Positions 612 through 45,015 of a stretch of DNA of 64,000 nt are shown piece by piece. The stretch's first letter is position 1. Each line of letters begins with the position of its first letter. The notes beneath the pieces are model-generated. The model saw nothing but the letters and a program-made list of their open reading frames with translations. It searched no databases and had not been told where the DNA came from. Source of the DNA: Patescibacteria group bacterium (lineage in GTDB: Bacteria; Patescibacteriota; UBA1384; XYA2-FULL-43-10; 1-14-0-10-43-13); contig JBAZBD010000001.1 of NCBI GenBank assembly GCA_041671645.1, forward strand, positions 412,890-476,889, given 5' to 3'. The position numbers were made by a program, and so were the translations under genes.

Positions 612-1787
612 ATGGCAGACGAAGAATTTTTTGATCGTGGCGTAACAGAGATCATTACCGAGGCGTCTTTTCGTGAGAAGCTAAAAGCGGGCAAGAAACT
701 TCGTATCAAATATGGAGTCGATCCAACCAAACCAGATATCCACCTGGGCCATGCCTCAGTGATGTGGAGACTTCGAAAGCTTCAGGATGAAGGCCATACC
801 ATTATTTTCTTGATCGGCGACTACACTACCAAGATTGGCGACCCGTCCGGTCGCAATGCTACCAGGCCGGTGTTAGATGACGCCGAGATCAAGAAGAACG
901 CCGCAACTTACTTCGATCAAGCTGGCAGGATTTTAGATATGGGCAAAACCGAGATCAGATACAATTCAGAGTGGTTTGATAAATTGTCCTTTAACGATCT
1001 TTTGCAAATAGCTGGTAAATTTACGGTGGCTCAAATCATTGAGCGCGATGACTTCGAGAAAAGATTAAAAGAAGGCCATGATATTGGACTTCATGAGACG
1101 CTCTACCCAGTGATGCAGGCGTATGATTCTGTCATACTTATGGCTGATGTCGAATTTGGCGGCGGCGATCAGAAATTTAATATGCTAGCCGGCAGGGATT
1201 TGCAGAAGAAGATGAATCAATTGCCTCAGGATGTCGTAATGTTTAAGCTTTTGGTCGGACTGGACGGCAAGATCAAGATGAGCAAATCAGCAGACAACTA
1301 CATTGGAATTACTGAGCAGCCAGATCAGATTTTTGGCAAGATAATGTCTATCCCGGATAGCGCGATTATCGAATATTTCGAATTGGCCACAAAGATATCG
1401 GAAAATGAGATCGAAAAGATCAAGGACGAGTTAAGAGAGGGCAAGAATCCTCGAGATATCAAAATCCAGTTGGCCAAAGAGATTGTCTCTATCTATTATA
1501 GCGGCAAAGATGCCGAGGCAGCTGCCTTAGAATTCGAGAAAGTATTTTCGAGGAAGGAGCTTCCGACAGATATTCCTGAGGCAAAGATTGAATATGGAAA
1601 TTATAATATTTTGACCATACTAACTTTACTCGGCAGCGTTTCATCAAACTCTGACGCTAGAAGACTGGTCGAGCAGGGCGGAGTCAGGATAGATGAGGCC
1701 AAGATTACTGATCCGACTGCACAAATTGCGATCGATAAAGGCATGATAATTCAAATCGGCAAAAAGAATTTCTTCAAGATAAAGTAA
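612..1787 (+). CDS. tyrS: Tyrosyl-tRNA synthetase
   Basis: Class I HIGH (HLGH) and KMSKS motifs; C-terminal S4-like RNA-binding domain; 391 aa. Confidence 0.9.
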   Translation: MADEEFFDRGVTEIITEASFREKLKAGKKLRIKYGVDPTKPDIHLGHASVMWRLRKLQDEGHTIIFLIGDYTTKIGDPSGRNATRPVLDDAEIKKNAATYFDQAGRILDMGKTEIRYNSEWFDKLSFNDLLQIAGKFTVAQIIERDDFEKRLKEGHDIGLHETLYPVMQAYDSVILMADVEFGGGDQKFNMLAGRDLQKKMNQLPQDVVMFKLLVGLDGKIKMSKSADNYIGITEQPDQIFGKIMSIPDSAIIEYFELATKISENEIEKIKDELREGKNPRDIKIQLAKEIVSIYYSGKDAEAAALEFEKVFSRKELPTDIPEAKIEYGNYNILTILTLLGSVSSNSDARRLVEQGGVRIDEAKITDPTAQIAIDKGMIIQIGKKNFFKIK

Positions 1788-3472
1788 TGAGAAATATTGT
1801 AAAAGCAAAAATTGATCTAGCCCTAAAATCACTTGGTTTTAATTTGCCTGGCTATTCTGTAGATGAGCCTCCAAGTCGCGAAATGGGGGACTATTCGACC
1901 AACGTCGCGATGGTTGCGTCTGGCCTCGAGAAGAAAAATCCCCGCGAAATCGCCCAAAAGATTCAGTCAGAATTATCGAAAGATCCAGAAATTGAAAGTG
2001 TTGAGATTGCTGGACCAGGCTTTATCAATATCGCCTTAAAGAGTGATCTTTATACTGAAGAGCTCTCCAAAATCTTGGAAGAGGGGAGTAAGTACGGATC
2101 GTCGGAAATTGGCAAAGGCAAAACTATCAACGTCGAATATGTTTCGGCAAACCCAACTGGCCCTTTGCATATCGGCAATGCTCGTAGCGGCCCGATTGGT
2201 GAAGCGGTGGCTAATCTTTTTGAATTTAACAGCTATGGCGTCACCAAAGAATTCTATGTAAATGATATCGGGGTGCAGATCGGACGATTTGGGAAATCAT
2301 TATTCCACTGGTGCGCCATCAAGTCTGATCCTAAAATAGAATTCCCAGAAGGTGGCTATCCTGGAGAGTATATTCAGGAGACGTCAGAGAAAATTCAAAA
2401 AGAATTTGGAGATGAAATTGCTCACCTAGATAATGATCAGGAGAAAATCGATTTTTTTGCTAGAAAAGGTCTGAATGTTATGGTCGCAAATATTAAGTCA
2501 GACTTAGAACTAGCTGGAATTAACATTCATACTTTTTCATACGAAAGCAAGATTATAAATTCTGGAAAATCAAAGATAGTGATTGATCGCCTAAAAGAAA
2601 AAGGTTTTGTTGCTGAGAAGGATGGTGCTGTCTGGTTCAAGAATCCAGAAGACCCAGACCTTATGGACAATGACGCTGTATTGGCTAAGAGCGACGAAGA
2701 GAAATCTCTCACATATTTTGCCAATGATATCGCATATCATTTGGATAAGATTGATAGGGGTGCTGACAAACTTTTTGATATCTGGGGGGCTAATCATTTC
2801 GGTCATATACCTCGGATGAAGGCTGCGCTTAGAGCTCTCGGGTGTCCTGATGAGACGCTAGAAATTGTTCTATACCAATATGTCAGATTGAAGAAATCGG
2901 GCGTGGCTTCGAGCATGGGCAAAAGATTGGGCAATTTCGTTACCTTGCGCGCTGTGATTGAGGCGGGGGTAGAGGCAGACGCCTTCAAATATTTTATTCT
3001 TTCTCAAAACGCTAATACGCCGATGGATTTCGATATTGAACTAGCAGCCGAAAAATCAGAGAAGAATCCTGTCTACTATATTAAATATGCTCACGCTCGA
3101 ATTTGTTCAATTCTCAAGAAAATTGAGGAACAGGGGACCCCACTTCGCCAAGGCTTCGCGGGGCAGGTAAGCGATCAGGAGCGAGGAGATCTTTCATTAT
3201 TAAAAGACGAAAAAGAAATCGCCCTCTATAAAGAGCTGGTAAAATTCCCAGAAATCGTCGAGGAAACTCTTGTTGATTTTCAAACTCAACGACTCCCCCA
3301 CTTCGCTTACAAAATCGCCGCTCTCTTTCATGATTTTTATAACTCATGCAGTGTAATTGATGCAGGATCAAAAGAGCTTGTATCAGCTCGCTTGTCCCTG
3401 ATAATCGCGACCAAAAATATTCTGGCCAATACTCTAAAAATCTGCGGCATCAAGGCCCCAGAGAAGATGTAG
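1787..3472 (+). CDS. argS: Arginyl-tRNA synthetase
   Basis: 561 aa; HIGN class I motif; N-terminal Arg_tRNA_synt_N-like region and C-terminal DALR anticodon-binding region; overlaps the tyrS stop by 1 nt. Confidence 0.9.
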   Translation: MRNIVKAKIDLALKSLGFNLPGYSVDEPPSREMGDYSTNVAMVASGLEKKNPREIAQKIQSELSKDPEIESVEIAGPGFINIALKSDLYTEELSKILEEGSKYGSSEIGKGKTINVEYVSANPTGPLHIGNARSGPIGEAVANLFEFNSYGVTKEFYVNDIGVQIGRFGKSLFHWCAIKSDPKIEFPEGGYPGEYIQETSEKIQKEFGDEIAHLDNDQEKIDFFARKGLNVMVANIKSDLELAGINIHTFSYESKIINSGKSKIVIDRLKEKGFVAEKDGAVWFKNPEDPDLMDNDAVLAKSDEEKSLTYFANDIAYHLDKIDRGADKLFDIWGANHFGHIPRMKAALRALGCPDETLEIVLYQYVRLKKSGVASSMGKRLGNFVTLRAVIEAGVEADAFKYFILSQNANTPMDFDIELAAEKSEKNPVYYIKYAHARICSILKKIEEQGTPLRQGFAGQVSDQERGDLSLLKDEKEIALYKELVKFPEIVEETLVDFQTQRLPHFAYKIAALFHDFYNSCSVIDAGSKELVSARLSLIIATKNILANTLKICGIKAPEKM

Positions 3473-3493
3473 AACTATAAATTTATGAAGTGG

Positions 3494-5686
3494 CTAGAGG
3501 CTACCTTCGTATATTTTGTTGTCTCCTAGTCCCCATATCTTTTGGAGTTTGGTGTTCACGACGAAATCTTGCAATTTCACGCCGTCAAAAACATATTGAT
3601 TCTGGAAGTTTCCAGCTTTGTCGAATCTGAGGATTTTGCCTGCATTTGAATCAAAGACGAAGAGGTTACTCGTCTCATCATCAGTGTATATCTTGGTCGC
3701 TAATATCTTGTCCTGATCTATCAGGCTTGGAATATCTCTCAGGGCGAAATCTTGTTCTAGGCTTCCACGGACAAACTTTGCGACGCGGTTCCCTTTCTCC
3801 AGGACGAAGATGTTGCCGTCAACTGCCATATCTTTGGCTTCAATTAGCGATATTTTTCTGGTATCGGCGTACTTCGAGCCCTTGGCAAAACCGTCGTCCT
3901 TCTTGGTGTGTTTCCAGACTTGGCCAGTCTCGGAATCGAGGAGGTAGATATTTGTAGCATACGTTGTGATCGCAGCCGACCTTTCCCACGCGCCCAGGTC
4001 ATCAGTGACTTTGAACTCTGAGATGGTATTGCTGTCTAATGTCATGGACAAGACTTTTTGTTGGTCAGTCAAGACCAGAATAGTATTTTCTTGTTTTGAA
4101 AATGTCAGATTGATCGGTTGCCCCATGCCGCTAATAGTTGCCACAGGTTTTGATGATTTGTCTCTGGCGTCGGAGAGGGAAATTATTCCCTCGTTGCTGA
4201 TGCCATAGATTTGCGATCCGACCAGAGCGATTTTTGTAATATTTTTTTCTGCAGCAAAGGGGCTCGTATAGTAACGGACTGTATTGGTCTTGTCATCGAT
4301 AAACTCGTTGATATTTTTGACCAGGATGAGAGCTTTTTCACCGTTGACGCTTGAAGATCGGGCGTTTTCGGCGGTACTCAAAATCTCGAAGATTTTCTTG
4401 TAATCGACTGATTTGTGGAGGGCTAAATCGTTCTTGAAATTTTCAAAATCTGTTTTGGCCTGGTCATATGAACCGTCAAGTCGAACCTGGGAAATCTTGG
4501 CTTCGCGCTTCTCATTGTTCTCTGAGATCTTGAAATATCCAGTCGAAAGGGCGACCAGTATCAGGAAAATATACAGGTATTTCCTATTGTTCTTCTCAAG
4601 GACGATCCCGACTTTGTCGATGTGGCCAAAGCAATTTTGGCAGAAAAAAGCGATTTGTCCAAAGAAAGATTTGCTGGGGCCATGCTTGGCGTAGGCGACA
4701 GCCTTGATTTTGATCTTCTTGTAATTCTCTGACTCTTCGAGAGACTTGAAATTTTTGCTAATTCCAGCTTTTGCCTTCATGACTTGGTCGACGGCCTTGG
4801 GCAAATTTTTCCGAACGTATTGTAATATCTTGGGCCAGACCTGCTTGCGGCATTGATGCAAAAGTTGCTTCAGGAATTTGAGCGAACTCTTCCCGGCTAC
4901 CAGGGCGCCGACCCGACTTTTTTCTCTGGCTTCTGAAAATTTCGATTTAATATTTTTCACAACTGGATCGTCGTCATCAGTAAAGACGCACTGCAAGTTT
5001 TCATCGAGATAGGCAAAACCCTCATCCTTGTTGTCTGCAAAAATGACGATGGCGCCGACCGATTTGACTCGTGATTTTCTCAGTATTCCAGAGATTCCCA
5101 TCACTTCTTTGGCGGGATCGTGGAGCTTGATGACCTCTTTGAGATTGCTAAGGGGGAGGTGACCATAGGTATCTTTGGTTGCGAAGATAAGGCGGTCGTC
5201 GCTCGAGAGATCTCCAGAAACGATGTCGGAAAATATTTTGCCTGGATGAGTTGGCGCCTCACTATCCTCTTGGTTGATCAGGGAGGAGATACGATTATTT
5301 CTGAAAATATAGCCGACTATTTTGCCAGTTTGTGAGAGTAATATGTCTCGCCCCGAGACTATCCCAATTAGCATATTGAGGGAGAAAATCGATTTTAGAT
5401 CCGTTTGCTCTGCTTCTTTGCAGATGGCGTTGTTCAAGGCTGATAAAATATCATCGAAATCTTTGGGCTGAAAACTTTCTTTGTCGGAGACCTCATCCAT
5501 GATGACCTGGTTCAGCTTCTCCAAGAAAGCCTCATCTTCTGGCTGGGAGAAAGGTAGGTCGATTAAATAAAAAAGAAAATTACCGCCATCAAAATCAGAG
5601 CCGATCTTTTCACAGATAAGCCCCCTATTCTCCGATCTATTCCTGCTGGTGATAAGGGCAGATTGAACTACCGGAAGTTTGTCCAT
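3494..5686 (-). CDS. Large membrane protein with an N-terminal PP2C-like (possibly degenerate) phosphatase-like domain, one TM helix and a C-terminal beta-propeller-like repeat domain
   Basis: 730 aa. The N-terminus has PP2C-like blocks (SDFDGGNF, LLSQTGKIVGYIF, DDRLIFATKDTYGHL, GAIVIFADN) but the canonical GDSR is not conserved. TM segment YLYIFLILVALSTGYF. The C-terminus has repeated hydrophobic beta-strand blocks (NIYLLDSETGQVWKH, NIFVLEKGNRVAKF, NLFVFDSNAGKILRFD). Confidence 0.4.
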   Translation of the reverse strand: MDKLPVVQSALITSRNRSENRGLICEKIGSDFDGGNFLFYLIDLPFSQPEDEAFLEKLNQVIMDEVSDKESFQPKDFDDILSALNNAICKEAEQTDLKSIFSLNMLIGIVSGRDILLSQTGKIVGYIFRNNRISSLINQEDSEAPTHPGKIFSDIVSGDLSSDDRLIFATKDTYGHLPLSNLKEVIKLHDPAKEVMGISGILRKSRVKSVGAIVIFADNKDEGFAYLDENLQCVFTDDDDPVVKNIKSKFSEAREKSRVGALVAGKSSLKFLKQLLHQCRKQVWPKILQYVRKNLPKAVDQVMKAKAGISKNFKSLEESENYKKIKIKAVAYAKHGPSKSFFGQIAFFCQNCFGHIDKVGIVLEKNNRKYLYIFLILVALSTGYFKISENNEKREAKISQVRLDGSYDQAKTDFENFKNDLALHKSVDYKKIFEILSTAENARSSSVNGEKALILVKNINEFIDDKTNTVRYYTSPFAAEKNITKIALVGSQIYGISNEGIISLSDARDKSSKPVATISGMGQPINLTFSKQENTILVLTDQQKVLSMTLDSNTISEFKVTDDLGAWERSAAITTYATNIYLLDSETGQVWKHTKKDDGFAKGSKYADTRKISLIEAKDMAVDGNIFVLEKGNRVAKFVRGSLEQDFALRDIPSLIDQDKILATKIYTDDETSNLFVFDSNAGKILRFDKAGNFQNQYVFDGVKLQDFVVNTKLQKIWGLGDNKIYEGSL

Positions 5687-5884
5687 TTATTCTTTTATTT
5701 TACCTTTTTCGGTGGATATCTTCAACCAAAGGGGTATTTAAAAATAATATTATTTAATGATAAAATCTAAGTGAGGTTTTGCTTAGGCGATAAATTGGCC
5801 ATCAATTAGATCGCATAGGGTTTCCAATATTTGTTCTGACCGTGGTCAGAACGTGAGGTAACCCACTTGGTTATAAAGACCAAT

Positions 5885-7084
5885 TTAAACCGAAGCAGAG
5901 CCTCTTTTTTGTTTGGATTCAATCAGCTCACGGTAAATATCAAGTAACTCATGGAAGGTCTTGGTGATCTCATGCTGTGAAGCGATTTGCATCGAGTGTC
6001 GGCCCATTACTTCAGCTTGTCTCTTGTGTCTGATGATTTCGACAAGTCCCTTGGCCAAATCTTTTGAATCGTCAGTTTTGAACAAGAAACCGTTGACTTC
6101 GTCCTTGACTAGCTCTGGGAGGGCATTGGCTTTGACGGCTACTATAGGAAGTCCTGCGGACATAGCTTCAAGGGTGACCAGACTTTGAGTTTCAATAGTT
6201 GAAGCAATAGCGAAAACCGTCGCTGACTTGTAGAGAGCGACAAAATCGTCGGAATCATGGTCGAGGCGCCCCAGCATAGTTAAGTCCTTCCTGACACTTA
6301 GATCCTCAGCCAATTTCTCCATTTCAGAGATAAGATCCCCCGTACCGGCGAAGACGAAATGAGCGGTGGTATCCTTGACGACATCAGGAATTGCCCTGAC
6401 AATAACATCGATACTTTTGTCCTGATCAATTCTGCCTGTGTAGAGTACGATTGGATTATTGGGCAAATGATATTTGATCTTGAAGTCATTAATTTTTTTC
6501 TGCGGAAATTTCCTGGCGAAACGATCGTAAAATATTCCGTTTGAAATCGCCACCACTGGAGTCTTGACTCCCCAAGAGCGGATTTGTTTGGCGATAGTCT
6601 CGGTCGGCGTGAGGACTAGATCGCAACGGTTGTGAAAAGATACTAAATACCTTGTCAGCAGAAATTTGGAAAAAGGCTTCAATATCTTGAGTTTGACATA
6701 TGCGATAGCAAATTCGAGACTAAAATGATTGGTGATGACGACAGGAATGTTCTTTTCATTTCCGACGTCTCGAAGCATTATGCCAATGGTGGCGACGTCT
6801 TGGAGATGGATCAAATCTGGCTGGATCGATTCAATTTGACGCCTAATTTCATTCTTCGAAGCAGAAGTGATGCGAAAGCCTTTGCGGAAAGGATTCACAA
6901 TCGATTTCAAGCGGATCACTTTGTATGGGAAGCTCTTGTCAACAGAGGTTTCGCCGGTGCGACTGGGGCAGAGGACTATTGGCTCATGGCCAGATTTCAG
7001 TAAATTATTAGCTAGAATTTCGGTCGCAACAGCAACACCAGAAATATTGGGAGAGAACGATTCGGTTCCTAATATTATTTTCAT
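5885..7084 (-). CDS. Glycosyltransferase family 4 (GT-B, retaining)
   Basis: 399 aa; GT4 E-x7-E region (ETQSLVTLEAMSAGLPIVA...NGFLF); typical N-terminal GT-B fold. Confidence 0.8.
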   Translation of the reverse strand: MKIILGTESFSPNISGVAVATEILANNLLKSGHEPIVLCPSRTGETSVDKSFPYKVIRLKSIVNPFRKGFRITSASKNEIRRQIESIQPDLIHLQDVATIGIMLRDVGNEKNIPVVITNHFSLEFAIAYVKLKILKPFSKFLLTRYLVSFHNRCDLVLTPTETIAKQIRSWGVKTPVVAISNGIFYDRFARKFPQKKINDFKIKYHLPNNPIVLYTGRIDQDKSIDVIVRAIPDVVKDTTAHFVFAGTGDLISEMEKLAEDLSVRKDLTMLGRLDHDSDDFVALYKSATVFAIASTIETQSLVTLEAMSAGLPIVAVKANALPELVKDEVNGFLFKTDDSKDLAKGLVEIIRHKRQAEVMGRHSMQIASQHEITKTFHELLDIYRELIESKQKRGSASV

Positions 7085-7154
7085 ACTAATATTTTAGCTG
7101 TAAACAGAAATATTATCAAACAAAAATATACTCATCCATGACGAGTATATTTTT

Positions 7155-7229
7155 GGTCAGGGAGGCGGGACTTGAACCCGCGGCCTCCGGACCCCCAGCC
7201 CGGCGCGCTACCAACTGCGCTACACCCTG
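7155..7229 (-). tRNA. tRNA-Pro (anticodon GGG)
   Basis: Cloverleaf read on the minus strand: acceptor CAGGGTG/CTCCCTG (one mismatch), D arm GCGC-AGTTGGTA-GCGC, anticodon stem CCGGG/TCCGG with loop CTGGGGG, T arm GCGGG-TTCAAGT-CCCGC, encoded CCA. Confidence 0.75.
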
Positions 7230-7270
7230 AACAATTTAAAACAATACCAGATTTGAGACATGATTTCTAG

Positions 7271-7306
7271 GCAAAATAAAAAGCGGCCGATGTGTAGCGG
7301 CCGCTT
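7271..7306 (-). terminator. Intrinsic terminator downstream of the 7320-7745 ORF
   Basis: On the minus strand: AAGCGGCCG-ctacacat-CGGCCGCTT followed by TTTTATTTT. Confidence 0.5.
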
Positions 7307-7319
7307 GGATTGGTCGGGC

Positions 7320-7745
7320 TCAAAGGGATGTGCTGCCCTTTTTCCCGAAATTGTCATTGGAGTGGGATCTCCTTTGACCGACATAGATTGTCTTCGAATA
7401 GACCGAGAGCTTAAAGCAGATGCTTGCTGATCCGTTGTTGGCAATCGTCGGCGCTATATGCTGTTTGCATATCCCGAAGACGTATCTTGCAATGTGCGTT
7501 TCTGACCATGCCTCTGATGGCCACCTCTTGGTCCAGGAGTCTGTGGGCCAAAGAAATTGGATAGATGTGCGTACCTTGTTGGCACGCTTGCGGATTACTA
7601 CTCTGAATTCGAGATGAATGTAAGCTGGCTTACCATACTCGAAAGGAAAGCTTGACCCGCTTTGGTTTAGAATTGCCAGGATGTCCTGGACGGGGGCGGG
7701 GATCGTCATTGAATTGTCCTCCAAATTTTCATTCTCATATAACAA
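7320..7745 (-). CDS. Hypothetical protein (GC-richer islet next to tRNA-Pro)
   Basis: 141-aa ORF with a terminator; no recognisable motif; the true start may be an internal Met (MTIPAPV...). Confidence 0.3.
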   Translation of the reverse strand: MLYENENLEDNSMTIPAPVQDILAILNQSGSSFPFEYGKPAYIHLEFRVVIRKRANKVRTSIQFLWPTDSWTKRWPSEAWSETHIARYVFGICKQHIAPTIANNGSASICFKLSVYSKTIYVGQRRSHSNDNFGKKGSTSL

Positions 7746-7915
7746 AAAATCACCTGCTCGTATCCGGCTGGTGATTATTCGCTATATTCTCTAGTAGTCC
7801 AAAATCACTTGCCGGAATGGGTAAGTAGTAGGACTAGTAGGTTTTGTGCGAATGTGATCATTGAGATGAATTTACGCTTTTCCGATAAAAAAGTCAAGAA
7901 ATAAAAAATGGCCGA

Positions 7916-8266
7916 CTATTCTTGGTCGGCCATGGGTTCTGGGGTCAAGAGTATTTCCGTATAAGTAAGACCGAAGTCTTGCTGCGGGATCATTTCCCAG
8001 GCGTTGTTCTTTTCTTCCAATCTGAAGCCCAGAATTGCGCCATAGGCACCGCATGTCGGCCAAAATTGGCCGATCGCCAGATAGTTCTCTGACGAGCCCA
8101 CAATATGGAAATCTCTGGAGCAGCCGCCCTGGGTGAAGACGCCCTCACCAAAGACGCGGTTTTCGATCAGTCGTATTTTACCCTTGTATTCGAAGGTTGG
8201 CGGGCTCTGGAAGGGAAGTAACGGTTTTCCCAGAGCTGAGATATGAAAGGAAAATTCGGTGGTCAT
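7916..8266 (-). CDS. Hypothetical protein
   Basis: 116-aa ORF; no recognisable motif. Confidence 0.3.
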   Translation of the reverse strand: MTTEFSFHISALGKPLLPFQSPPTFEYKGKIRLIENRVFGEGVFTQGGCSRDFHIVGSSENYLAIGQFWPTCGAYGAILGFRLEEKNNAWEMIPQQDFGLTYTEILLTPEPMADQE

Positions 8267-8390
8267 GCTTCCACCTCCTCAAAAATTCTGCTCTGTGCAG
8301 TAATCAATGGAATCTTTATAACACAAAATCGGTTGTTTTGCCAGTCAACCTTACTTTTAATATTTGAAGTTTTGATCTATCCTATGAGTT

Positions 8391-9803
8391 ATGACTATAG
8401 AAAACATCAAAGATATTGTTGACGACGAGCTTTTTAATAAACTTCTGCTTGGGACTATAGATCCAACCCAAGAAATTATTTTGAAGATTTTGAAGAAAGC
8501 TTCGAAGAAAAAGGGCTTAAGTTTGGAAGACGTTGCCGCTCTTTGCAATTGTACTGACCCGGTCTTGATCGCGAAAATCTTTGAGTTCGCCTACAAGATC
8601 AAACAGGACATCTATGGCGAGCGGATAGTCCTATTTGCTCCACTATATATATCTGATTTTTGCGTCAATGACTGCGAATATTGCAATTTCCATTGCCGGA
8701 ACAACTCGCCGAGGCGAAAATTATCTCTAGAAGAAGTGGCGTCACAGACAAAGGCCCTGGTCGATATGGGACACAAACGGCTGCTCCTCGAGTTTGGCGA
8801 ACATCCCGTCGAAAATCCAATTGACTATGTTGTTGACACCATAAATACAATTTACAAAACGAAATCGAAGAACGGCGAGATTCGGAGAGTGAATGTAAAT
8901 ATTGCCGCCACGACAGTAGAAAATTATCGCAAACTGAAGGAAGCGGGGATTGGCACCTACCAACTTTTCCAAGAAACATATCATCGGCCCACTTTCGAAA
9001 AATTACATCATGGGCCAAAAGCCAAATATGAGAGACAGCTTTTCGCTCACAACAAAGCTTTTGAGGCGGGGATAGATGACTTGGGAATTGGCGTGTTATA
9101 CGGTCTTTATGATTGGCGATACGAAGTTCTAGCTCTCGTCTCTCATGCAGCTTACATGGACAAAACTTTTGGCGTCGGCCCGCATACTATTTCAGTACCG
9201 CGTTTTCAGGAAACGCCAGGAGTAGACTTTAAGCCGCCATATCCTGTTTCGGAGGATGAATTACTGAAAATCGTCGCAATACTACGATTAGCCGTGCCAT
9301 ATACCGGGATGATTATTTCGACTCGAGAACGGCCAGAAATTCGAGAGCAGGCGTTTAAACTTGGTATTTCTCAGACTAGTGCAGGCTCCCGAGTAGAAGT
9401 GGGTGGATATGACGAAAATTCTAAACCAGTGACTAAAAGCCCAAAAGATGATGGTTGCGGCCAATTCACCACTCATGACCCGAGAACCTTGGATCAGATT
9501 GTGATAAGCCTTTGCGACCAGGGGCTTTTACCATCTTTCTGCACTGCCTGCTACCGAAGTCTTCGGACGGGAGAGAGTTTCATGGAAATCGCCAAGCCAG
9601 GCAACATCCACAATTTTTGTCGGCCAAATGGAATTTTGACCTTCAAGGAATATCTCCTGGATTATGCTTCACCTCTGGCCAAGCAAAAAGGCGAGAAATT
9701 GATTCGTGAATATTTGGACAAGATTCCGTCAAAAAAACGCAGAGAAGAAACGATGGAGCGTCTGGCTAGACTTGAAAAAGGCGAGCGGGATCTGTACTTT
9801 TAA
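8391..9803 (+). CDS. hydG: Radical SAM tyrosine-lyase family protein, HydG-like ([FeFe]-hydrogenase maturase-like)
   Basis: 470 aa. N-terminal CVNDCEYC (CX3CX2C radical SAM cluster) and C-terminal CTAC-x22-C (the CX2CX22C auxiliary cluster motif characteristic of HydG, absent from ThiH). No hydE, hydF or hydA is present in the window. Confidence 0.6.
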   Translation: MTIENIKDIVDDELFNKLLLGTIDPTQEIILKILKKASKKKGLSLEDVAALCNCTDPVLIAKIFEFAYKIKQDIYGERIVLFAPLYISDFCVNDCEYCNFHCRNNSPRRKLSLEEVASQTKALVDMGHKRLLLEFGEHPVENPIDYVVDTINTIYKTKSKNGEIRRVNVNIAATTVENYRKLKEAGIGTYQLFQETYHRPTFEKLHHGPKAKYERQLFAHNKAFEAGIDDLGIGVLYGLYDWRYEVLALVSHAAYMDKTFGVGPHTISVPRFQETPGVDFKPPYPVSEDELLKIVAILRLAVPYTGMIISTRERPEIREQAFKLGISQTSAGSRVEVGGYDENSKPVTKSPKDDGCGQFTTHDPRTLDQIVISLCDQGLLPSFCTACYRSLRTGESFMEIAKPGNIHNFCRPNGILTFKEYLLDYASPLAKQKGEKLIREYLDKIPSKKRREETMERLARLEKGERDLYF

Positions 9804-9884: not shown

Positions 9885-9936
9885 TTTTACATATGAGAAG
9901 ACTGATGCTAATATATTGTCTGGAGAAAATTTTGTT

Positions 9937-10851
9937 ATGGATTCGATAGAAGTCAAAAATTTGGTGAAAAATTACGGTCGGCTAAAGGCCGTTGATGGTG
10001 TCTGCTTCGAAGTTCGACAGGGCGAAATTTTTGGGTTGCTCGGCGAAAACGGAGCGGGCAAAACTACAACGTTGGAGATGATTGAAGGTTTGCGCAAGCC
10101 GACTTCTGGATCTATCCTGATGCTTGGAACCGATCTGAGTCATGGGATGAAAGATGAAATCAAAGAAAAAATTGGTGTTCAGCTCCAATCATCCGCTTAC
10201 TACAATTTCCTAACACTCAAAGAAATACTTGAGCTTTTTGGCGGATTTTACCAAAAATCAATTCCTGCCTTGGAACTCCTGAAAATGGTAAATCTGGATG
10301 CCAAGGCAAACTCTCTGGTCAAAAATCTTTCTGGCGGGCAAAAACAGAGATTTTCTATCGTCGCTGCATTGGTCAATGATCCCGAGATTGTTTTCTTGGA
10401 CGAGCCGACCACCGGGCTTGACCCGATCGCTCGTCGACGGCTGTGGGACATTATCGTCAAAATAAAATCTCAGGGCAAGACTATCATCATCACAACTCAC
10501 TATATGGAAGAGGCGGAGGTTCTTTGCGATCGCATTGCTATTATGGACAAAGGCAAGATTCTGAAAATGGGGGAGACTCACAAATTAATTGAAGCGACCA
10601 AGACTCCTTACAAGATTAGCTTTATCTTGAGCAAGCCGGATGGCAAAGAAATAGATGAAATTGCCAAGTTTGGAAAATTAGAGAATCTGGCCGGCAAGTC
10701 GAATCACTATGAAATGCATCTCAAAACTCAAGACGCAGTCAACAAATCGATCAATATAATTCAGAAATTAAATCCAGAGTCGCTGACAGTGGGGCGTGCT
10801 TCACTTGAAGACTTATTTGTGGAGTTAACAGGTAAGAATATCGAAGAGTAA
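9937..10851 (+). CDS. ABC transporter ATP-binding protein (ABC-2/exporter type)
   Basis: Walker A GENGAGKTT, signature LSGGQKQR, Walker B IVFLDEPT. Start placed at MDSIEVKNL because the track ORF (from 9706) overlaps tRNA-Pro. Confidence 0.85.
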   Translation: MDSIEVKNLVKNYGRLKAVDGVCFEVRQGEIFGLLGENGAGKTTTLEMIEGLRKPTSGSILMLGTDLSHGMKDEIKEKIGVQLQSSAYYNFLTLKEILELFGGFYQKSIPALELLKMVNLDAKANSLVKNLSGGQKQRFSIVAALVNDPEIVFLDEPTTGLDPIARRRLWDIIVKIKSQGKTIIITTHYMEEAEVLCDRIAIMDKGKILKMGETHKLIEATKTPYKISFILSKPDGKEIDEIAKFGKLENLAGKSNHYEMHLKTQDAVNKSINIIQKLNPESLTVGRASLEDLFVELTGKNIEE

Positions 10852-10853
10852 AT

Positions 10854-11939
10854 ATGTTTAAACTTTTTCTGCCAGATTTGAAAATGTTATTTCGGAACAA
10901 GCAAGCCTCGTTCTGGGCCTTGATGTTTCCCCTCATGTTCACCTTCATCTTTGGGTTTTTCTTTGGCAAAGATTCTACTACTGGCAATATTATAGTGATT
11001 AATAATTCAAAGACGGAAATTGCTACCAATCTGGAGCAAACGCTGACCGATACAAAGTTGTTTGTCATAAACAAAGATTATACTGACATCGACAAGGCTC
11101 GCGAGCAGGTCGAAAAGGGAAAAATTGCTGCCGTTTTGGTAATCCCTGAAAATTTTGGAGCGCCAACGTCTTCTGCGCCAAAAACATTGCAGGTCATCGA
11201 TGATCCGGCCAATACAACGACCAACACCGTGCTACTTGGCTTTCTCGATAAATTTAATGTCGGCCTCACTTTCAAGATCAACAAGATCGAAGAGACTGCT
11301 TTCACCGTTATCGAGGAGAAGACAAACAAGAAGAGTTTGGGATATTTCGACTTTGTTTTGGCTGGTTTGCTTGGCCTATCTCTGATGAACGCCTCGATAA
11401 TGGGAATCGCCGTCGGTATGTCAAAGTATCGAGAAGACAAGATATTCAAAAGATTGACTACGACCCCGATGAAACCTTGGTGGTTTATCGTCAATGAAGT
11501 TCTTTCCCATTTGGTTCTCAATTTCCTGCAAATCACAATCATCCTATTTGTTGGGAAATTTGTCTTCGACGCTCATATTTATGGAAGTTTCTGGGTGATT
11601 TACCCGCTGGCACTTCTCGGAGGTGTATTGTTCCAGCTTATTGGTTTCGCTATCGCTTCTATCGTCAAAACGACCGATGCCGCTCAGGGCGCGGCCATGG
11701 CGATCACCATCCCGATGATGTTCTTGGGCGGTGTTTTCTTCCCAATCGATGGTCTGCCCAAATGGCTTTTCTCGATTGTGCAGTTTTTGCCGATTGCGCC
11801 ATTACTCCGAATGCTTCGGACAGTTGTACTCGAAGGTGGCTCAGTACTGACCAATCCAGCTAATATGATTATCGTACTATCGTGGATCGTAGTCTGTCTC
11901 TTCTTCGCTAGCTGGAAATTTCGTCTTAACGAAGAATAA
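10854..11939 (+). CDS. ABC-2 family transporter permease
   Basis: 361 aa; N-terminal TM, large periplasmic loop, then five TM helices (ABC2_membrane-like); translationally coupled to the ATPase. Confidence 0.7.
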   Translation: MFKLFLPDLKMLFRNKQASFWALMFPLMFTFIFGFFFGKDSTTGNIIVINNSKTEIATNLEQTLTDTKLFVINKDYTDIDKAREQVEKGKIAAVLVIPENFGAPTSSAPKTLQVIDDPANTTTNTVLLGFLDKFNVGLTFKINKIEETAFTVIEEKTNKKSLGYFDFVLAGLLGLSLMNASIMGIAVGMSKYREDKIFKRLTTTPMKPWWFIVNEVLSHLVLNFLQITIILFVGKFVFDAHIYGSFWVIYPLALLGGVLFQLIGFAIASIVKTTDAAQGAAMAITIPMMFLGGVFFPIDGLPKWLFSIVQFLPIAPLLRMLRTVVLEGGSVLTNPANMIIVLSWIVVCLFFASWKFRLNEE

Positions 11940-11975: not shown

Positions 11976-13457
11976 TTGAGATATAATATTGCTATGTGGA
12001 TGCGCAACAAATGGTCCGAAATCATACTCAAGCTTTCTCTGATTCCAAAAAATAAACTCTATGTACTGGTTGGTTCTGTGCTGGTCATTATAATTTTACT
12101 AGTTACAGTCGGAGTCAAAACTGTTGGGGCGATCAGAGAGAAGAATCGTTTGCGAGCGGTAGAGCAGGAACAGTCAAGCAACGACTCTATTTTCGAAGTA
12201 GAGAAAAATTCTGGAACAGAGGTCGTCCCAACCACAAATACTCCAGACGCATCTACCCAAACCACTGCTGGTGTAAATTCTGGGACTAGCTCAACCCCTT
12301 CTACGTCTAGCGGCGGCGCAACAAACAGCTCAGATTCTACGTCTAGCGGTGGCACGACAACTGTTTCGGATTCTACCTCTAGCGGCGATACTACCAATAG
12401 TAGCAGCTCTAGCAGTAGCGGAAGCTCTAGCAGCGGTACGGCGACTCTGTCTTCCTGTGGAAGTAGCTATTCCTTCTTTGATCACGATCCGACGGACATG
12501 TCAGAATTTGCCAATATCGCGCCGCTCGGCAATCTTAATCCCTCAGGTCACGTTTTCCCGACCGATCATATTTATTTTTATCATTCTAGCAATAACACTT
12601 CCACGGTCTATGCCCCAGGGAGCGCAACTGTGACTCGGATCTCGGCGAGCGAAAACCAAACTGCTGGCACGACCGATTATAGTATTTACTTCAACCCATG
12701 TAGCGAACTAGAAGTTTATTATCTGCATATTTCCACCATGTCGCAAAAATTGCTTGACGCTTTTGTTGCTCCTTTTTCCTGGGATAGTACTTATTCGACT
12801 GGCGGTAGCACTTACCGAAATTACGGTCGAAATGTCAATGTTGTTCTGGCGAGCGGGGAGACCGTCGGCACTTTCACTGGCCAATATGCCTTTGATATGG
12901 GTGCGTATGACACCAGGATCACCTTAAATTTTGTCAATCCAAATGCTCGTCTGAACAGCACCCACACTGTATGCCCGCTCGATTATTATTCTGACAGTTT
13001 GAAGGCGACGCTTTATGGCTATCTCGGGAGTAGCGCTAGCAACAAACGCACCGTTGCCCCACTTTGCGGTACTGTTGATCAAGATGTCGCAGGTACGGCT
13101 CAAGGCGTCTGGCTGCTTGCAGGAACGACGCAGGTCAATGGCGAAGACACTCATCTAGCACTGGTTCATGGCAATACTGACCCAACACAGGCAACTTTTT
13201 CCGTCGGTACTTCTGTCGGCGCAAGCGGACTCTCGAGCGGGGTCTACACTTTTACCCCCTCTGGTGGGTCATACAATAAAGACTTCAATGCTGTCACAGT
13301 AGATAGCGGACCGCAATGTTATCGGGCAGAAAGAAACGGTGCTCAAACTATTCTGATCCAATTAACTAGTGCCACAACACTTAAGATCGAGAAACTAGAC
13401 GGTGATTGCGATACTCCACGTAGTTTTACTGGCAACGAAACATCATTCCAAAGGTAA
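11976..13457 (+). CDS. Membrane-anchored extracellular protein with a Ser/Thr-rich tandem-repeat linker
   Basis: 493 aa; N-terminal TM; ~80-aa S/T/G low-complexity stretch encoded by ~36-39 nt tandem repeats (12290-12440); C-terminal globular domain without recognisable motifs. Confidence 0.45.
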   Translation: MRYNIAMWMRNKWSEIILKLSLIPKNKLYVLVGSVLVIIILLVTVGVKTVGAIREKNRLRAVEQEQSSNDSIFEVEKNSGTEVVPTTNTPDASTQTTAGVNSGTSSTPSTSSGGATNSSDSTSSGGTTTVSDSTSSGDTTNSSSSSSSGSSSSGTATLSSCGSSYSFFDHDPTDMSEFANIAPLGNLNPSGHVFPTDHIYFYHSSNNTSTVYAPGSATVTRISASENQTAGTTDYSIYFNPCSELEVYYLHISTMSQKLLDAFVAPFSWDSTYSTGGSTYRNYGRNVNVVLASGETVGTFTGQYAFDMGAYDTRITLNFVNPNARLNSTHTVCPLDYYSDSLKATLYGYLGSSASNKRTVAPLCGTVDQDVAGTAQGVWLLAGTTQVNGEDTHLALVHGNTDPTQATFSVGTSVGASGLSSGVYTFTPSGGSYNKDFNAVTVDSGPQCYRAERNGAQTILIQLTSATTLKIEKLDGDCDTPRSFTGNETSFQR

Positions 13458-13540: not shown

Positions 13541-13570
13541 CTGCCTCGCGTGAGGCGGTTATTTTTTTGC
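13541..13570 (+). terminator. Hairpin plus T-run after the 11976-13457 gene (possibly bidirectional)
   Basis: GCCTC-GCGT-GAGGC followed by GGTTATTTTTTTGC; overlaps the stop of the convergent minus-strand ORF. Confidence 0.4.
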
Positions 13571-14092
13571 GCCAGTTTGGCGCATTTCCTGTTCGGTCAG
13601 CTCCCGAGGTGGCGCCGTAAGGCGTCTCTCATACTGGCTGAGAAGGTAGGAGATTGACAATCCGTCGACGTTGACCAACTCCTGTAGGCGAGTGCACTCC
13701 TTGCAGATTTTGACGTCATCTGGACTGCGACGCTGTTGTTTTTCGACGGTATCGAGCAGTTTGCGCTTATCTTTCTCGGACTGGCGCAATTTTTCAATAA
13801 CGCCGAAGAGGTCAGCTGGCTCTGCCCAGTATTTCTCGCTGTCGAGACAGTACTTGGCGACAAGACGGGCTGCCTGGACAGGGTCTTTGGCGATAACGGC
13901 TTTGACTTGGCTGTCGCACCAAGCTGGGTCGGCATCAGGGGAATAGAAAGATCCGAAAGTCCCAGTGCAGGCTGCAACTGTGACTGTCTGGGTCGGCTGA
14001 TCAGCAGCTTGGCAAACCTTGCCGGCTGTGACAGCGAGGAGGACTGGCAGGACAATGGCCGCTACCAGTACAAGGGCGAAGTTACGTAACAT
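13559..14092 (-). CDS. Secreted hypothetical protein (GC-rich islet)
   Basis: Start chosen at MLRNFALVLVAAIVLPVLLAVTAG (signal-peptide-like). Local GC is ~53% versus ~42% in the surroundings, so both strands carry long ORFs here. Confidence 0.4.
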   Translation of the reverse strand: MLRNFALVLVAAIVLPVLLAVTAGKVCQAADQPTQTVTVAACTGTFGSFYSPDADPAWCDSQVKAVIAKDPVQAARLVAKYCLDSEKYWAEPADLFGVIEKLRQSEKDKRKLLDTVEKQQRRSPDDVKICKECTRLQELVNVDGLSISYLLSQYERRLTAPPRELTEQEMRQTGAKK

Positions 14093-14254
14093 GTACGTTC
14101 TCCTTTTGTTGATTGGATCCGTGATCCTTAACATTATATTAACACAAAATTGATGTATGGTCAATGTAGCAGGTATCTCTGACAGATCTTGCGCCATTTT
14201 GAAATTGAGAATAAAATCTAGTTAATTAATGAGCTAGAGGGGATTGGAGAAAAA

Positions 14255-23760: not shown

Positions 23761-24288
23761 ATGAAGTTATCCAAGAATGTCAAAGCAATTTTGAGTACTA
23801 TTGGCTTGGGGCTGGCGCTTACAGTCGCGTCCACCTCGCCATATTTTTTGGTCAATTTAGTCAAATCAAAGAACAAATACGAGAAATATCGCTACAAGAA
23901 AATCATCAAAAAATTGTTTGACGACAAGATCATTTATCTTTCGGGGGAGGAAATAAAGTTGTCCGAAAATGGTCTCGAACTGCTGAGGCTTGCGCAGGTC
24001 GAGGATATCACTATCGCCAAGGGCAAAGGCGAATGGGATGGTTTTTGGCACCTGGTCTGCTATGACGTGCCGGAATCATACAAGCAGAGGAGGGATTGTT
24101 TCCGCCGAAAACTTATTGAATCAGGATTTTACCAAGTTCAGTACAGTCTGTGGGTAATTCCGTGGCCATGCAAAGAGGAGATTGCGATTATTGCGCAAAG
24201 TCTCGACATTGCGCCCTTTGTTGCCTATCTCAATACCGATTATCTGCCCCAACAACAAAAGCTCCTGAACCATTTCGATCTCGCATAA
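23761..24288 (+). CDS. PaaX-like domain protein (putative transcriptional regulator) with an N-terminal hydrophobic anchor
   Basis: WDGFWHLVCYDVPESYKQRRDCFRRKLIESGFYQVQYSLWVIPWP matches the PaaX middle-domain signature (W-x-G-x-WHLV-x-Y..P...R...R..L...GF......W). It has a preceding wHTH-like region (LSENGLELLRLAQ) and an N-terminal TM/signal. Confidence 0.5.
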   Translation: MKLSKNVKAILSTIGLGLALTVASTSPYFLVNLVKSKNKYEKYRYKKIIKKLFDDKIIYLSGEEIKLSENGLELLRLAQVEDITIAKGKGEWDGFWHLVCYDVPESYKQRRDCFRRKLIESGFYQVQYSLWVIPWPCKEEIAIIAQSLDIAPFVAYLNTDYLPQQQKLLNHFDLA

Positions 24289-44143: not shown

Positions 44144-44219
44144 GCCGATGTAGCTCAGTTGGTAGAGCAACTCCATGGTAAGGAGTAGGTCACCGGTTCA
44201 ATTCCGGTCATCGGCTCCA
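44144..44219 (+). tRNA. tRNA-Thr (anticodon GGT)
   Basis: Acceptor GCCGATG/CATCGGC, D arm GCTC-AGTTGGTA-GAGC, anticodon stem ACTCC/GGAGT with loop ATGGTAA, T arm ACCGG-TTCAATT-CCGGT, CCA. Confidence 0.75.
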
Positions 44220-44240
44220 GACAAATAGTGGCATTAGTAA

Positions 44241-44329
44241 GCCCCGACGCCCAGGGAAACTGGGATCGGGGTCCCGATCAAAACATCGGGAGAGTAGGTC
44301 GCCCCGACAAGTCGGGGTCAACGGCTCCA
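44241..44329 (+). other. Cluster of three GC-rich hairpins after tRNA-Thr (structured RNA or terminator cluster), ending in a tRNA-3'-end-like TCAACGGCTCCA
   Basis: CCCCGA-cg-CCCAG-GGAAA-CTGGG-a-TCGGGG; TCCCGAT-caaaac-ATCGGGA; CCCCGA-caag-TCGGGG. The last 12 nt mimic the tRNA-Thr acceptor 3' end (CATCGGCTCCA). Confidence 0.3.
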
Positions 44330-44435
44330 TAAAAATATCAATAATCGAATATCATTGATCAAGTGATTGAATAATTCCTGAAAATAGGTTACAATAACTT
44401 GTGATTTGGTACTTGAAACTTGGTATTTTTTTGTT

Positions 44436-44520
44436 GCTGGGATAGCAAAGTGGTCAACTGCATCTGACTGTAAATCAGACGGCATCGCCTTCGTAGGTTC
44501 GAATCCTGCTCCCAGCACCA
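44436..44520 (+). tRNA. tRNA-Tyr (anticodon GTA), type II with a long variable arm
   Basis: Acceptor GCTGGGA/TCCCAGC, anticodon stem TCTGA/TCAGA with loop CTGTAAA, variable-arm hairpin GGC-atc-GCC, T arm GTAGG-TTCGAAT-CCTGC, CCA. Confidence 0.75.
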
Positions 44521-44574
44521 CGCTTAGCGTGGTGAAAGGGACGCCTAGCGTCCCACCTTCATCGCCTGAGCGAT
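44516..44574 (+). other. Three consecutive short hairpins between tRNA-Tyr and tRNA-Thr
   Basis: CACCACGC-tta-GCGTGGTG (uses the tRNA CCA end), GGGACGC-cta-GCGTCCC, ATCGC-ctga-GCGAT. Confidence 0.3.
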
Positions 44575-44576
44575 TC

Positions 44577-44651
44577 GCCAGCTTAGCTCAACGGTAGAGC
44601 AACTGTTTTGTAAACAGTAGGTTATGGGTTCAAATCCCTTAGCTGGCTCCA
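44577..44651 (+). tRNA. tRNA-Thr (anticodon TGT)
   Basis: Acceptor GCCAGCT/AGCTGGC, D arm GCTC-AACGGTA-GAGC, anticodon stem ACTGT/ACAGT with loop TTTGTAA, T arm ATGGG-TTCAAAT-CCCTT (one mismatch), CCA. Confidence 0.7.
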
Positions 44652-44692
44652 TTAAAAAATTAATCAGATATTTATTTCCGAAAGAAATCACT

Positions 44693-44860
44693 ATGGCAAA
44701 AGAAGCTAGAAAACTAGTCACACTTGAATGCGAGAAATGCAAATCTCGTGGTTACCACACAGACAAGAGATTGAAGGGTCAGGACGTTATCAAACGTATT
44801 GAATTGACCAAGTATTGCAAGGTCTGCAAGGTTCGCACATTGCACAAAGAAACAAAATAA
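44693..44860 (+). CDS. rpmG: 50S ribosomal protein L33
   Basis: MAKEARKLVTLECEKCKSRGYHTDKRLKGQDVIKRIELTKYCKVCKVRTLHKETK (55 aa); four-Cys zinc ribbon typical of L33. Confidence 0.8.
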   Translation: MAKEARKLVTLECEKCKSRGYHTDKRLKGQDVIKRIELTKYCKVCKVRTLHKETK

Positions 44861-44941
44861 GTTTGAGCTGGTAAGCAATAAGCCAGTAAGCGTCTAAGTT
44901 TTTACTTAATTCTTACTGCTTAAAAGCTTATTAGCTTCAAT

Positions 44942-45015
44942 AGGGGTATAGTTAAATGGTATAACGAAGGTCTCCAAAACCTTTATTAGGGGTTCGATTC
45001 CTCTTACCCCTGCCA
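44942..45015 (+). tRNA. tRNA-Trp (anticodon CCA)
   Basis: Acceptor AGGGGTA/TACCCCT, anticodon stem AAGGT/ACCTT with loop CTCCAAA, T arm AGGGG-TTCGATT-CCTCT, CCA. Confidence 0.75.

Follow-up and report, generated by a model that had tools for sequence, protein, structure and literature searches.

Positions 412,890 to 476,889 of contig JBAZBD010000001.1 (assembly GCA_041671645.1, a Patescibacteria group bacterium) make up the 64-kb stretch of DNA analysed here, which is referred to below as the window. Near its left end lies hydG, an open reading frame (ORF) of 470 codons with an ATG start and an intact frame, which encodes HydG, a tyrosine lyase of the radical S-adenosylmethionine (radical-SAM) type. 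This report describes the gene, its chromosomal setting and its relatives, with emphasis on the hydrogenase maturation partners that such a gene would be expected to have. The gene and the motifs that define its product are as follows.

8391..9803, + strand: hydG coding sequence (radical-SAM tyrosine lyase, Fe(CO)2(CN) synthon synthase), from TIGR03955, Pfam and the alignment with structure 4WCX
8661..8684, + strand: CX3CX2C motif, CVNDCEYC (C91/C95/C98), ligands of the radical-SAM [4Fe-4S] cluster, read from the sequence; invariant in 118/118 aligned HydGs
9183..9185, + strand: codon of His265 (in GPHT), aligned with GPHT of 4WCX; invariant in 118/118
9540..9620, + strand: CX2CX22C motif, CTAC-22 aa-C (C384/C387/C410), C-terminal auxiliary-cluster ligands, aligned with 4WCX and 4RTB; invariant in 118/118

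It is close to certain, as judged from the sequence, that this ORF encodes a genuine HydG and not an enzyme of the ThiH or NosL type. The protein scores 560.5 bits against the HydG equivalog model TIGR03955 (cutoff 312.15), residues 26-470 covering model positions 30-470 of 470, and Pfam recognizes a Radical_SAM domain at residues 86-239 and a BATS domain at 268-379. Residues 7-470 align with the HydG of Thermoanaerobacter italicus (4WCX; E 7.5e-164, 549 bits; identity roughly 60%, estimated by eye), and the HydG of Carboxydothermus hydrogenoformans (4RTB) is also matched (E 1.6e-106, 360 bits). The histidine of GPHT is, we take it from HydG structures, the ligand of the dangler iron. An identical protein from a metagenome-assembled genome (MAG) of a Patescibacteria group bacterium is deposited at NCBI as MFA6963493.1 with a HydG annotation; the gene is thus already annotated as HydG, and the window protein alone adds little that is new.

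A sequence-only reading of this DNA had assigned the ORF to HydG rather than to ThiH or NosL on the combination of the N-terminal CX3CX2C with a C-terminal CX2CX22C. The profile scores agree with that assignment, both motifs occur at the residues listed above, and the C-terminal cysteines fall in the same columns as those of the HydG auxiliary cluster in 4WCX and 4RTB. A divergent HydG paralog was considered and ruled out: no catalytic residue has been lost, and conservation in the auxiliary domain matches that in the radical-SAM barrel. A role like that of ThiH, in which only dehydroglycine (2-iminoacetate) would be made for the thiazole of thiamine, is very improbable. HydG begins with the reaction that ThiH catalyses, many relatives are labelled '2-iminoacetate synthase' by the Joint Genome Institute, and ThiH 7PD1 matches residues 43-383 (E 2.5e-49). 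However, the score against the ThiH model TIGR02351 is 270.9 bits, under the cutoff of 380, with the match restricted to residues 35-381; the auxiliary domain of ~90 residues, missing in ThiH, is the most conserved part of the protein within the clade of nearest relatives; and no thiamine biosynthesis gene is found among the window ORFs scanned.

Partner genes were searched for in the window with six-frame tblastn probes taken from related loci (HydA, HydF, HydE, a HypC::HydE fusion, [NiFe] hydrogenase large and small subunits, endopeptidase, HypA and HypB). No hydE, hydF, hydA, [NiFe] subunit, hypA/B or endopeptidase gene was detected in the 64 kb, hydG being the only match, and Pfam scans of 42 window ORFs gave no hydrogenase or maturation partner gene. 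Both searches uphold the earlier statement that the window holds no hydE, hydF or hydrogenase gene. The Pfam set is typical of the Candidate Phyla Radiation (CPR), with tyrosyl- and arginyl-tRNA synthetases (TyrRS, ArgRS), a family 4 glycosyltransferase (GT4), ABC and FtsX transporters, a histidine kinase and a type IV pilus ATPase, and many window proteins match no Pfam family. In some model genomes (Clostridium acetobutylicum, Thermotoga maritima) the genes hydE, hydF and hydG do not lie together, so that the empty 64 kb does not show that partners are absent.

The best 120 database matches of the protein are HydGs 62-86% identical to it, all belonging to CPR bacteria or DPANN archaea. Scans of genomes and metagenomes, together with look-ups, yielded 118 non-redundant hydG loci, the neighbours of which were classified by clustering, NCBIfam models and probes, with the following counts.

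HypC::HydE fusion gene (~390-435 aa) beside hydG: 61/118 loci
[NiFe]-related genes near hydG (group 3b/3c large and small subunits, endopeptidase, HypA, HypB, Mrp/Mbh-like): 41/118 loci
[NiFe]-related genes together with the fusion: 31/118 loci
HydF near hydG: 5/118 loci
HydA near hydG: 5/118 loci
HydF or HydA near hydG: 9/118 loci
HydF or HydA together with the fusion: 0/118 loci

Fisher tests give p ~0.001 for the mutual exclusion of the fusion and HydF/HydA and p ~0.0002 for the [NiFe] association, both values being approximate given the relatedness of the loci. The fusion protein begins with a HypC domain (residues 1 to ~70) that has the canonical N-terminal MCxxxPxKV, passes TIGR00074 and matches HypC 2Z1C of Thermococcus kodakarensis (E 1e-12), and its remainder is HydE-like, matching T. 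maritima HydE (E 1e-74). Examples are found at L006:11386-12564, L009:1740-3032, L036:8699-9994, L043:8638-9933, L114:8717-9973 and L118:8722-9993. The family has more than 3,000 database matches at E <=1e-30 and is labelled '[FeFe] hydrogenase maturase HydE' by the Prokaryotic Genome Annotation Pipeline (PGAP), hydG likewise being named an [FeFe] maturase. The module of hydG and fusion occurs in genomes of CPR, DPANN, Omnitrophota, Planctomycetota, Elusimicrobiota and WOR-3; in a Peregrinibacteria MAG it lies 6 kb from [NiFe] subunit genes, and in a Nanoarchaeota MAG it adjoins a NikR-like gene and a Zip transporter gene. Motifs of HypD, HypE and HypF were found in no flank of the collected hydG loci, and the three are absent among the Pfam families matched by at least two of 123 representative neighbour ORFs, a survey to which families matched by a single ORF contribute only in part.

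Genes for cysteine synthase, a class-V aminotransferase (cysteine-desulfurase-like) and an Rrf2/IscR-type regulator recur near fusion modules (L069:14927-15862, L069:1119-1559 and others); their recurrence would suit a HydG that draws on free cysteine. At L102:2596-7493 there is a compact hydG-hydE-hydF-hydA operon, the [FeFe] hydrogenase of which is minimal at 383 aa, so that classical [FeFe] systems are part of this HydG radiation too, and at L041, L042 and L044 HydE and HydF stand beside hydG. When the aligned HydGs were compared by genomic context, no diagnostic residue separated the HydF-linked from the fusion-linked proteins. Most archaea with [FeFe] hydrogenases have no HydEFG and a few have 'incomplete sets' (Greening and colleagues, PMC11216029), and group 3b [NiFe] hydrogenases of CPR bacteria have been described in a paper in which the word 'maturation' is never used (PMC10811913). 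A link between HydG, HypC::HydE and [NiFe] hydrogenases was not found in the open-access full-text literature, an absence that is not proof of novelty, and the pair of fusion and hydG may provide the Fe-CO/CN unit of [NiFe] enzymes by a route not yet described.

A bootstrapped neighbor-joining (NJ) tree of HydG, in which 4RTB serves as outgroup to the whole radiation holding the window gene, unites the window protein with those of L001, L119, L121 and L123 in a clade with a bootstrap of 0.935, whose sister group is supported at 0.32 or less. This solo clade, as it is called here from the absence of partner genes around its members, has features of its own. A loop insertion of 4-10 aa ends in GCGQF (window 9420-9470, HydG residues ~346-357), with an extra cysteine in 4/5 members, and two substitutions, Y202F and T335V, affect positions at least 85% conserved among other HydGs. 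Pairwise identity within the clade is 86% in the auxiliary-cluster domain versus 82% in the radical-SAM barrel, and partnered HydGs follow the same pattern.

Purifying selection on the gene is strong: in the comparison of the window with L001, whose protein is 86% identical, the proportion of nonsynonymous differences (pN) is 0.088 and that of synonymous differences (pS) 0.77, which is saturated. That hydG is a decaying remnant of a lost hydrogenase system is therefore hardly credible; the genome is reduced and partners are absent locally, but the 470-codon frame is intact with its low pN against a saturated pS, and all cluster ligands are invariant in every member of the clade.

The chromosomal setting of hydG includes the following features.

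7154..7229, - strand: tRNA-Pro(GGG) (ARAGORN; Rfam RF00005, 64 bits), with an equivalent position in L119 and L121
9809..9884, + strand: tRNA-Pro(CGG), 5 bases past the hydG stop codon (ARAGORN; Rfam, 65 bits), also after hydG in L001 and L119
612-1787, + strand: TyrRS (Pfam)
1787-3472, + strand: ArgRS (Pfam)
3494-5686, - strand: 730-aa protein without assigned function, which with TyrRS, ArgRS and GT4 makes up the syntenic anchor block 612..7084
5885-7084, - strand: GT4 glycosyltransferase (Pfam)
9934..11939, + strand: ABC-2 transporter pair, ATPase 9934-10851 and permease 10854-11939 (Pfam), downstream of tRNA-Pro(CGG)

Both flanking tRNA-Pro genes named by the sequence-only reading are real by ARAGORN and Rfam; it had given no strands, and the GGG gene starts at 7154 instead of 7155. 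The arrangement recurs in relatives. L001 (genome GCA_964526355.1), the nearest of them with a HydG 86% identical, is a MAG labelled Candidatus Saccharibacteria and has tRNA-Pro(CGG) directly 3' of hydG. L119 (HydG 80% identical) shows the order GT4, tRNA-Pro(GGG), small ORFs, hydG, tRNA-Pro(CGG). In L121 (71% identical) hydG adjoins tRNA-Pro(GGG), GT4, a 731-aa protein, ArgRS and TyrRS, which correspond to the window genes at 612-7084. Two slots vary in content. In the slot after tRNA-Pro(CGG) (window 9885-11939, L001:2160-4259), the window has the ABC-2 pair and L001 a phosphoglucomutase/phosphomannomutase (PGM/PMM) gene, beyond which the genes at 11976-13457 and 13559-14197 are again common to the two; between tRNA-Pro(GGG) and hydG there are two ORFs in the window, four in L119 (one of them cupredoxin-like) and one in L121. 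This local gene flux around the tRNAs does not involve hydG.

A recent island inserted at a tRNA-Pro gene is an improbable origin for hydG, in spite of the tRNA genes on both sides, the variable content of the two slots and the intermixing of bacterial and DPANN HydGs, which are 62-66% identical; the last of these makes an ancient transfer of the HydG family likely. The two tRNA-Pro genes are not attachment-site repeats, since they are distinct isoacceptors only 71% identical, and neither an integrase nor a repeat is present at the tRNA-hydG locus. GC content is 45.5% in the gap at 7230-8390 and 44.2% in hydG against 44.35% in the window (65th and 46th percentiles of same-size windows, respectively), and no GC, codon or third-codon-position GC (GC3) anomaly sets hydG or the gap apart from the window, so that the GC-richer islet proposed earlier is not borne out. 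As a recent event the insertion is refuted by the conservation of hydG, the tRNAs and the housekeeping flanks across species whose synonymous sites are saturated. Horizontal acquisition, which had also been suggested, finds no support either in the unshifted composition or in the locus, conserved together with its tRNAs in relatives with HydGs 71-86% identical. Conserved synteny and the saturated pS together indicate that hydG is old in the lineage and under strong purifying selection; within a Saccharibacteria-like lineage of Patescibacteria it has descended vertically, standing alone and in the same place on the chromosome.

The 1.16-kb gap between tRNA-Pro(GGG) and hydG holds two small genes.

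7916..8266, - strand: conserved hypothetical gene, 116 aa, divergent from hydG, with GGAGG 7 nt before the ATG and a homologue in L119
7320..7745, - strand: conserved hypothetical gene, 141 aa as listed, with GGAGG before a probable start ATG at 7709 (~129 aa) and a homologue in L119

They had been regarded as orphan ORFs, but both are conserved as genes in L119: the product of 7320-7745 is 47% identical to an ORF in the same order (E 3e-48) and that of 7916-8266 shares 41% identity with its positional counterpart there (E 1e-27). Each is followed by a terminator-like hairpin, at 7281-7306 for the former and at 7908-7933, overlapping the stop codon, for the latter. Neither matches a family in Pfam or NCBIfam. 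The AlphaFold model of the 116-aa protein predicts an eight-stranded all-beta barrel (predicted local distance difference test, pLDDT, 76) for which nothing significant was found among PDB folds, lipocalin-like matches being weak (E >0.08, template modeling score, TM, ~0.4); the model of the 141-aa product has low confidence (pLDDT 55) and is too poor to use. A small upstream protein as a hidden partner of hydG was considered and rejected, as the small ORFs of L001, L002 and the window are mutually unalignable and the window pair is conserved only in L119. A non-coding RNA in the gap at 7230-8390 was likewise dismissed, the match to SdsR being below threshold (22 vs 38 bits) and taken as chance. 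Elsewhere in the window, a PaaX_M/Cas2-like domain protein is encoded at 23761-24288 (+ strand), and four tRNA genes (Thr, Tyr, Thr, Trp) are clustered at 44144-45015.

Among related loci flanked by 3 kb or more on each side, 41 of 46 have a HydE-type gene adjoining hydG (36 HypC::HydE fusions and 5 plain HydE), and for this reason a partner is expected for the window HydG as well. The account that we consider somewhat better than an even bet is that of a functional, vertically inherited, solitary HydG which serves a partner in hydrogenase-cofactor assembly encoded elsewhere on the chromosome. By analogy with characterized HydGs, the [4Fe-4S] cluster held by C91/C95/C98 would cleave SAM, and the resulting 5'-deoxyadenosyl radical would break the bond between C-alpha and C-beta of tyrosine to give p-cresol and dehydroglycine. 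Dehydroglycine would be converted to CO and CN- at the auxiliary cluster (C384/C387/C410), where a cysteine-chelated dangler iron, held by His265, may become an [Fe(Cys)(CO)2(CN)] unit. This iron carbonyl-cyanide unit would then pass to the assembly partner elsewhere on the 868-kb chromosome, candidates for which are a HypC::HydE fusion, which travels with [NiFe] hydrogenases, or a classical set of HydE, HydF and [FeFe] HydA. Should a partner exist, the HypC::HydE/[NiFe] route would be no less likely than the classical [FeFe] one.

Several observations weigh against a distant partner. The 8.4 kb upstream of hydG and the 54 kb downstream of it contain none. A hyd or hyp neighbour occurs at 0/7 loci with a HydG at least 70% identical to that of the window (the window, L001, L119, L121 and L123, together with L124 and L125, at 73% and 71% identity), and only four of the 46 well-flanked loci are partnerless, namely the window, L121, L002 and L116. 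A profile search with CPR-type HydF returned ~105 close clusters followed by a score gap, as though the close clade had been exhausted, none of them from the contig of the window, and that contig is not among the best 120 matches of a HypC::HydE profile search, in which no such gap appeared; both are weak negatives. The evidence against partners is therefore weak, yet all of it points towards real solitude. A second lineage labelled Patescibacteria/Saccharibacteria also has a solitary hydG (L002:10001-11377, L116:10001-11377 and L005:1768-3177), in a conserved setting of its own with SpaA-like, N_methyl pilin-like, CsrA and D-Ala-D-Ala ligase genes and no hyd or hyp gene in flanks of 10 kb on each side. 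No description of a solitary HydG in CPR bacteria was found in the open-access full-text literature.

The rival account is a truly solitary HydG, one which would provide CO, CN-, an iron carbonyl-cyanide or p-cresol to another acceptor, or in an interaction with the host bacterium, in a genome with neither HydE, HydF, HypC::HydE nor a hydrogenase. We regard this as a real possibility, although below an even chance. The partnerless state of all seven clade loci and of the second lineage, set against the partnered majority, speaks for it, as do the monophyly of the solo clade with its own loop insertion, Y202F and T335V, the lack of any match on the contig in the CPR-type HydF search, and the fact that hydG is in use, as follows from the strong purifying selection. 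On the other hand, 92% of the chromosome lies outside the window, the negative profile searches cover only the best 120 matches, and the catalytic positions are all unchanged and the auxiliary domain unrelaxed, as expected of an ordinary maturase. Moreover, we know of no acceptor of the HydG product outside hydrogenase maturation.

A broader proposition, which joins the findings on relatives to those on the window and which we advance only tentatively and with some doubt, is that HydG is not, or not only, an [FeFe] maturase: together with HypC::HydE it would serve [NiFe] hydrogenases in most CPR, DPANN and uncultivated lineages, and in the clade of the window it would have another use without these partners. 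If this were so, HydG and HypC::HydE would replace HypD/E/F and give a source of the CO ligand in anaerobes, and the window clade would have kept HydG to put CO, cyanide or iron carbonyl derived from tyrosine to a further use. Where anaerobes obtain the CO ligand of their [NiFe] hydrogenases is, to our knowledge, an open question, for which the hydG-hypC::hydE pair is a concrete and testable candidate. Given the neighbours found among the relatives, metabolic reconstructions may be misled where automatic annotation of CPR and DPANN genomes assigns the label '[FeFe] hydrogenase maturase'. In the window clade itself, which consists of reduced and probably epibiotic bacteria, HydG is strongly selected although no partner is visible; should full genomes confirm this solitude, HydG chemistry has a use outside the known maturation pathways.

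The systems closest to the window HydG compare with it as follows. The HydGs of the hydG and hypC::hydE module are 55-65% identical to it, and the window and the solo clade differ from that module in having neither an adjoining fusion nor a [NiFe] gene. ThiH (7PD1, TIGR02351) shares the radical-SAM tyrosine lyase core and the BATS domain, whereas the extra domain of ~90 residues that carries the auxiliary cluster at the C-terminus of the window HydG is lacking in ThiH. C. hydrogenoformans HydG (4RTB) matches in architecture and cluster ligands and is more distant than 4WCX (360 vs 549 bits). T. italicus HydG (4WCX), a characterized [FeFe]-hydrogenase maturase, groups in the tree with HydF-linked loci, neighbours that the window hydG does not have; it resembles the window protein in the radical-SAM motif, GPHT, CX2CX22C and a C-terminal end in ...GERDLYF, to which the window HydG adds the clade-specific loop insertion with its extra cysteine at residues ~346-357.

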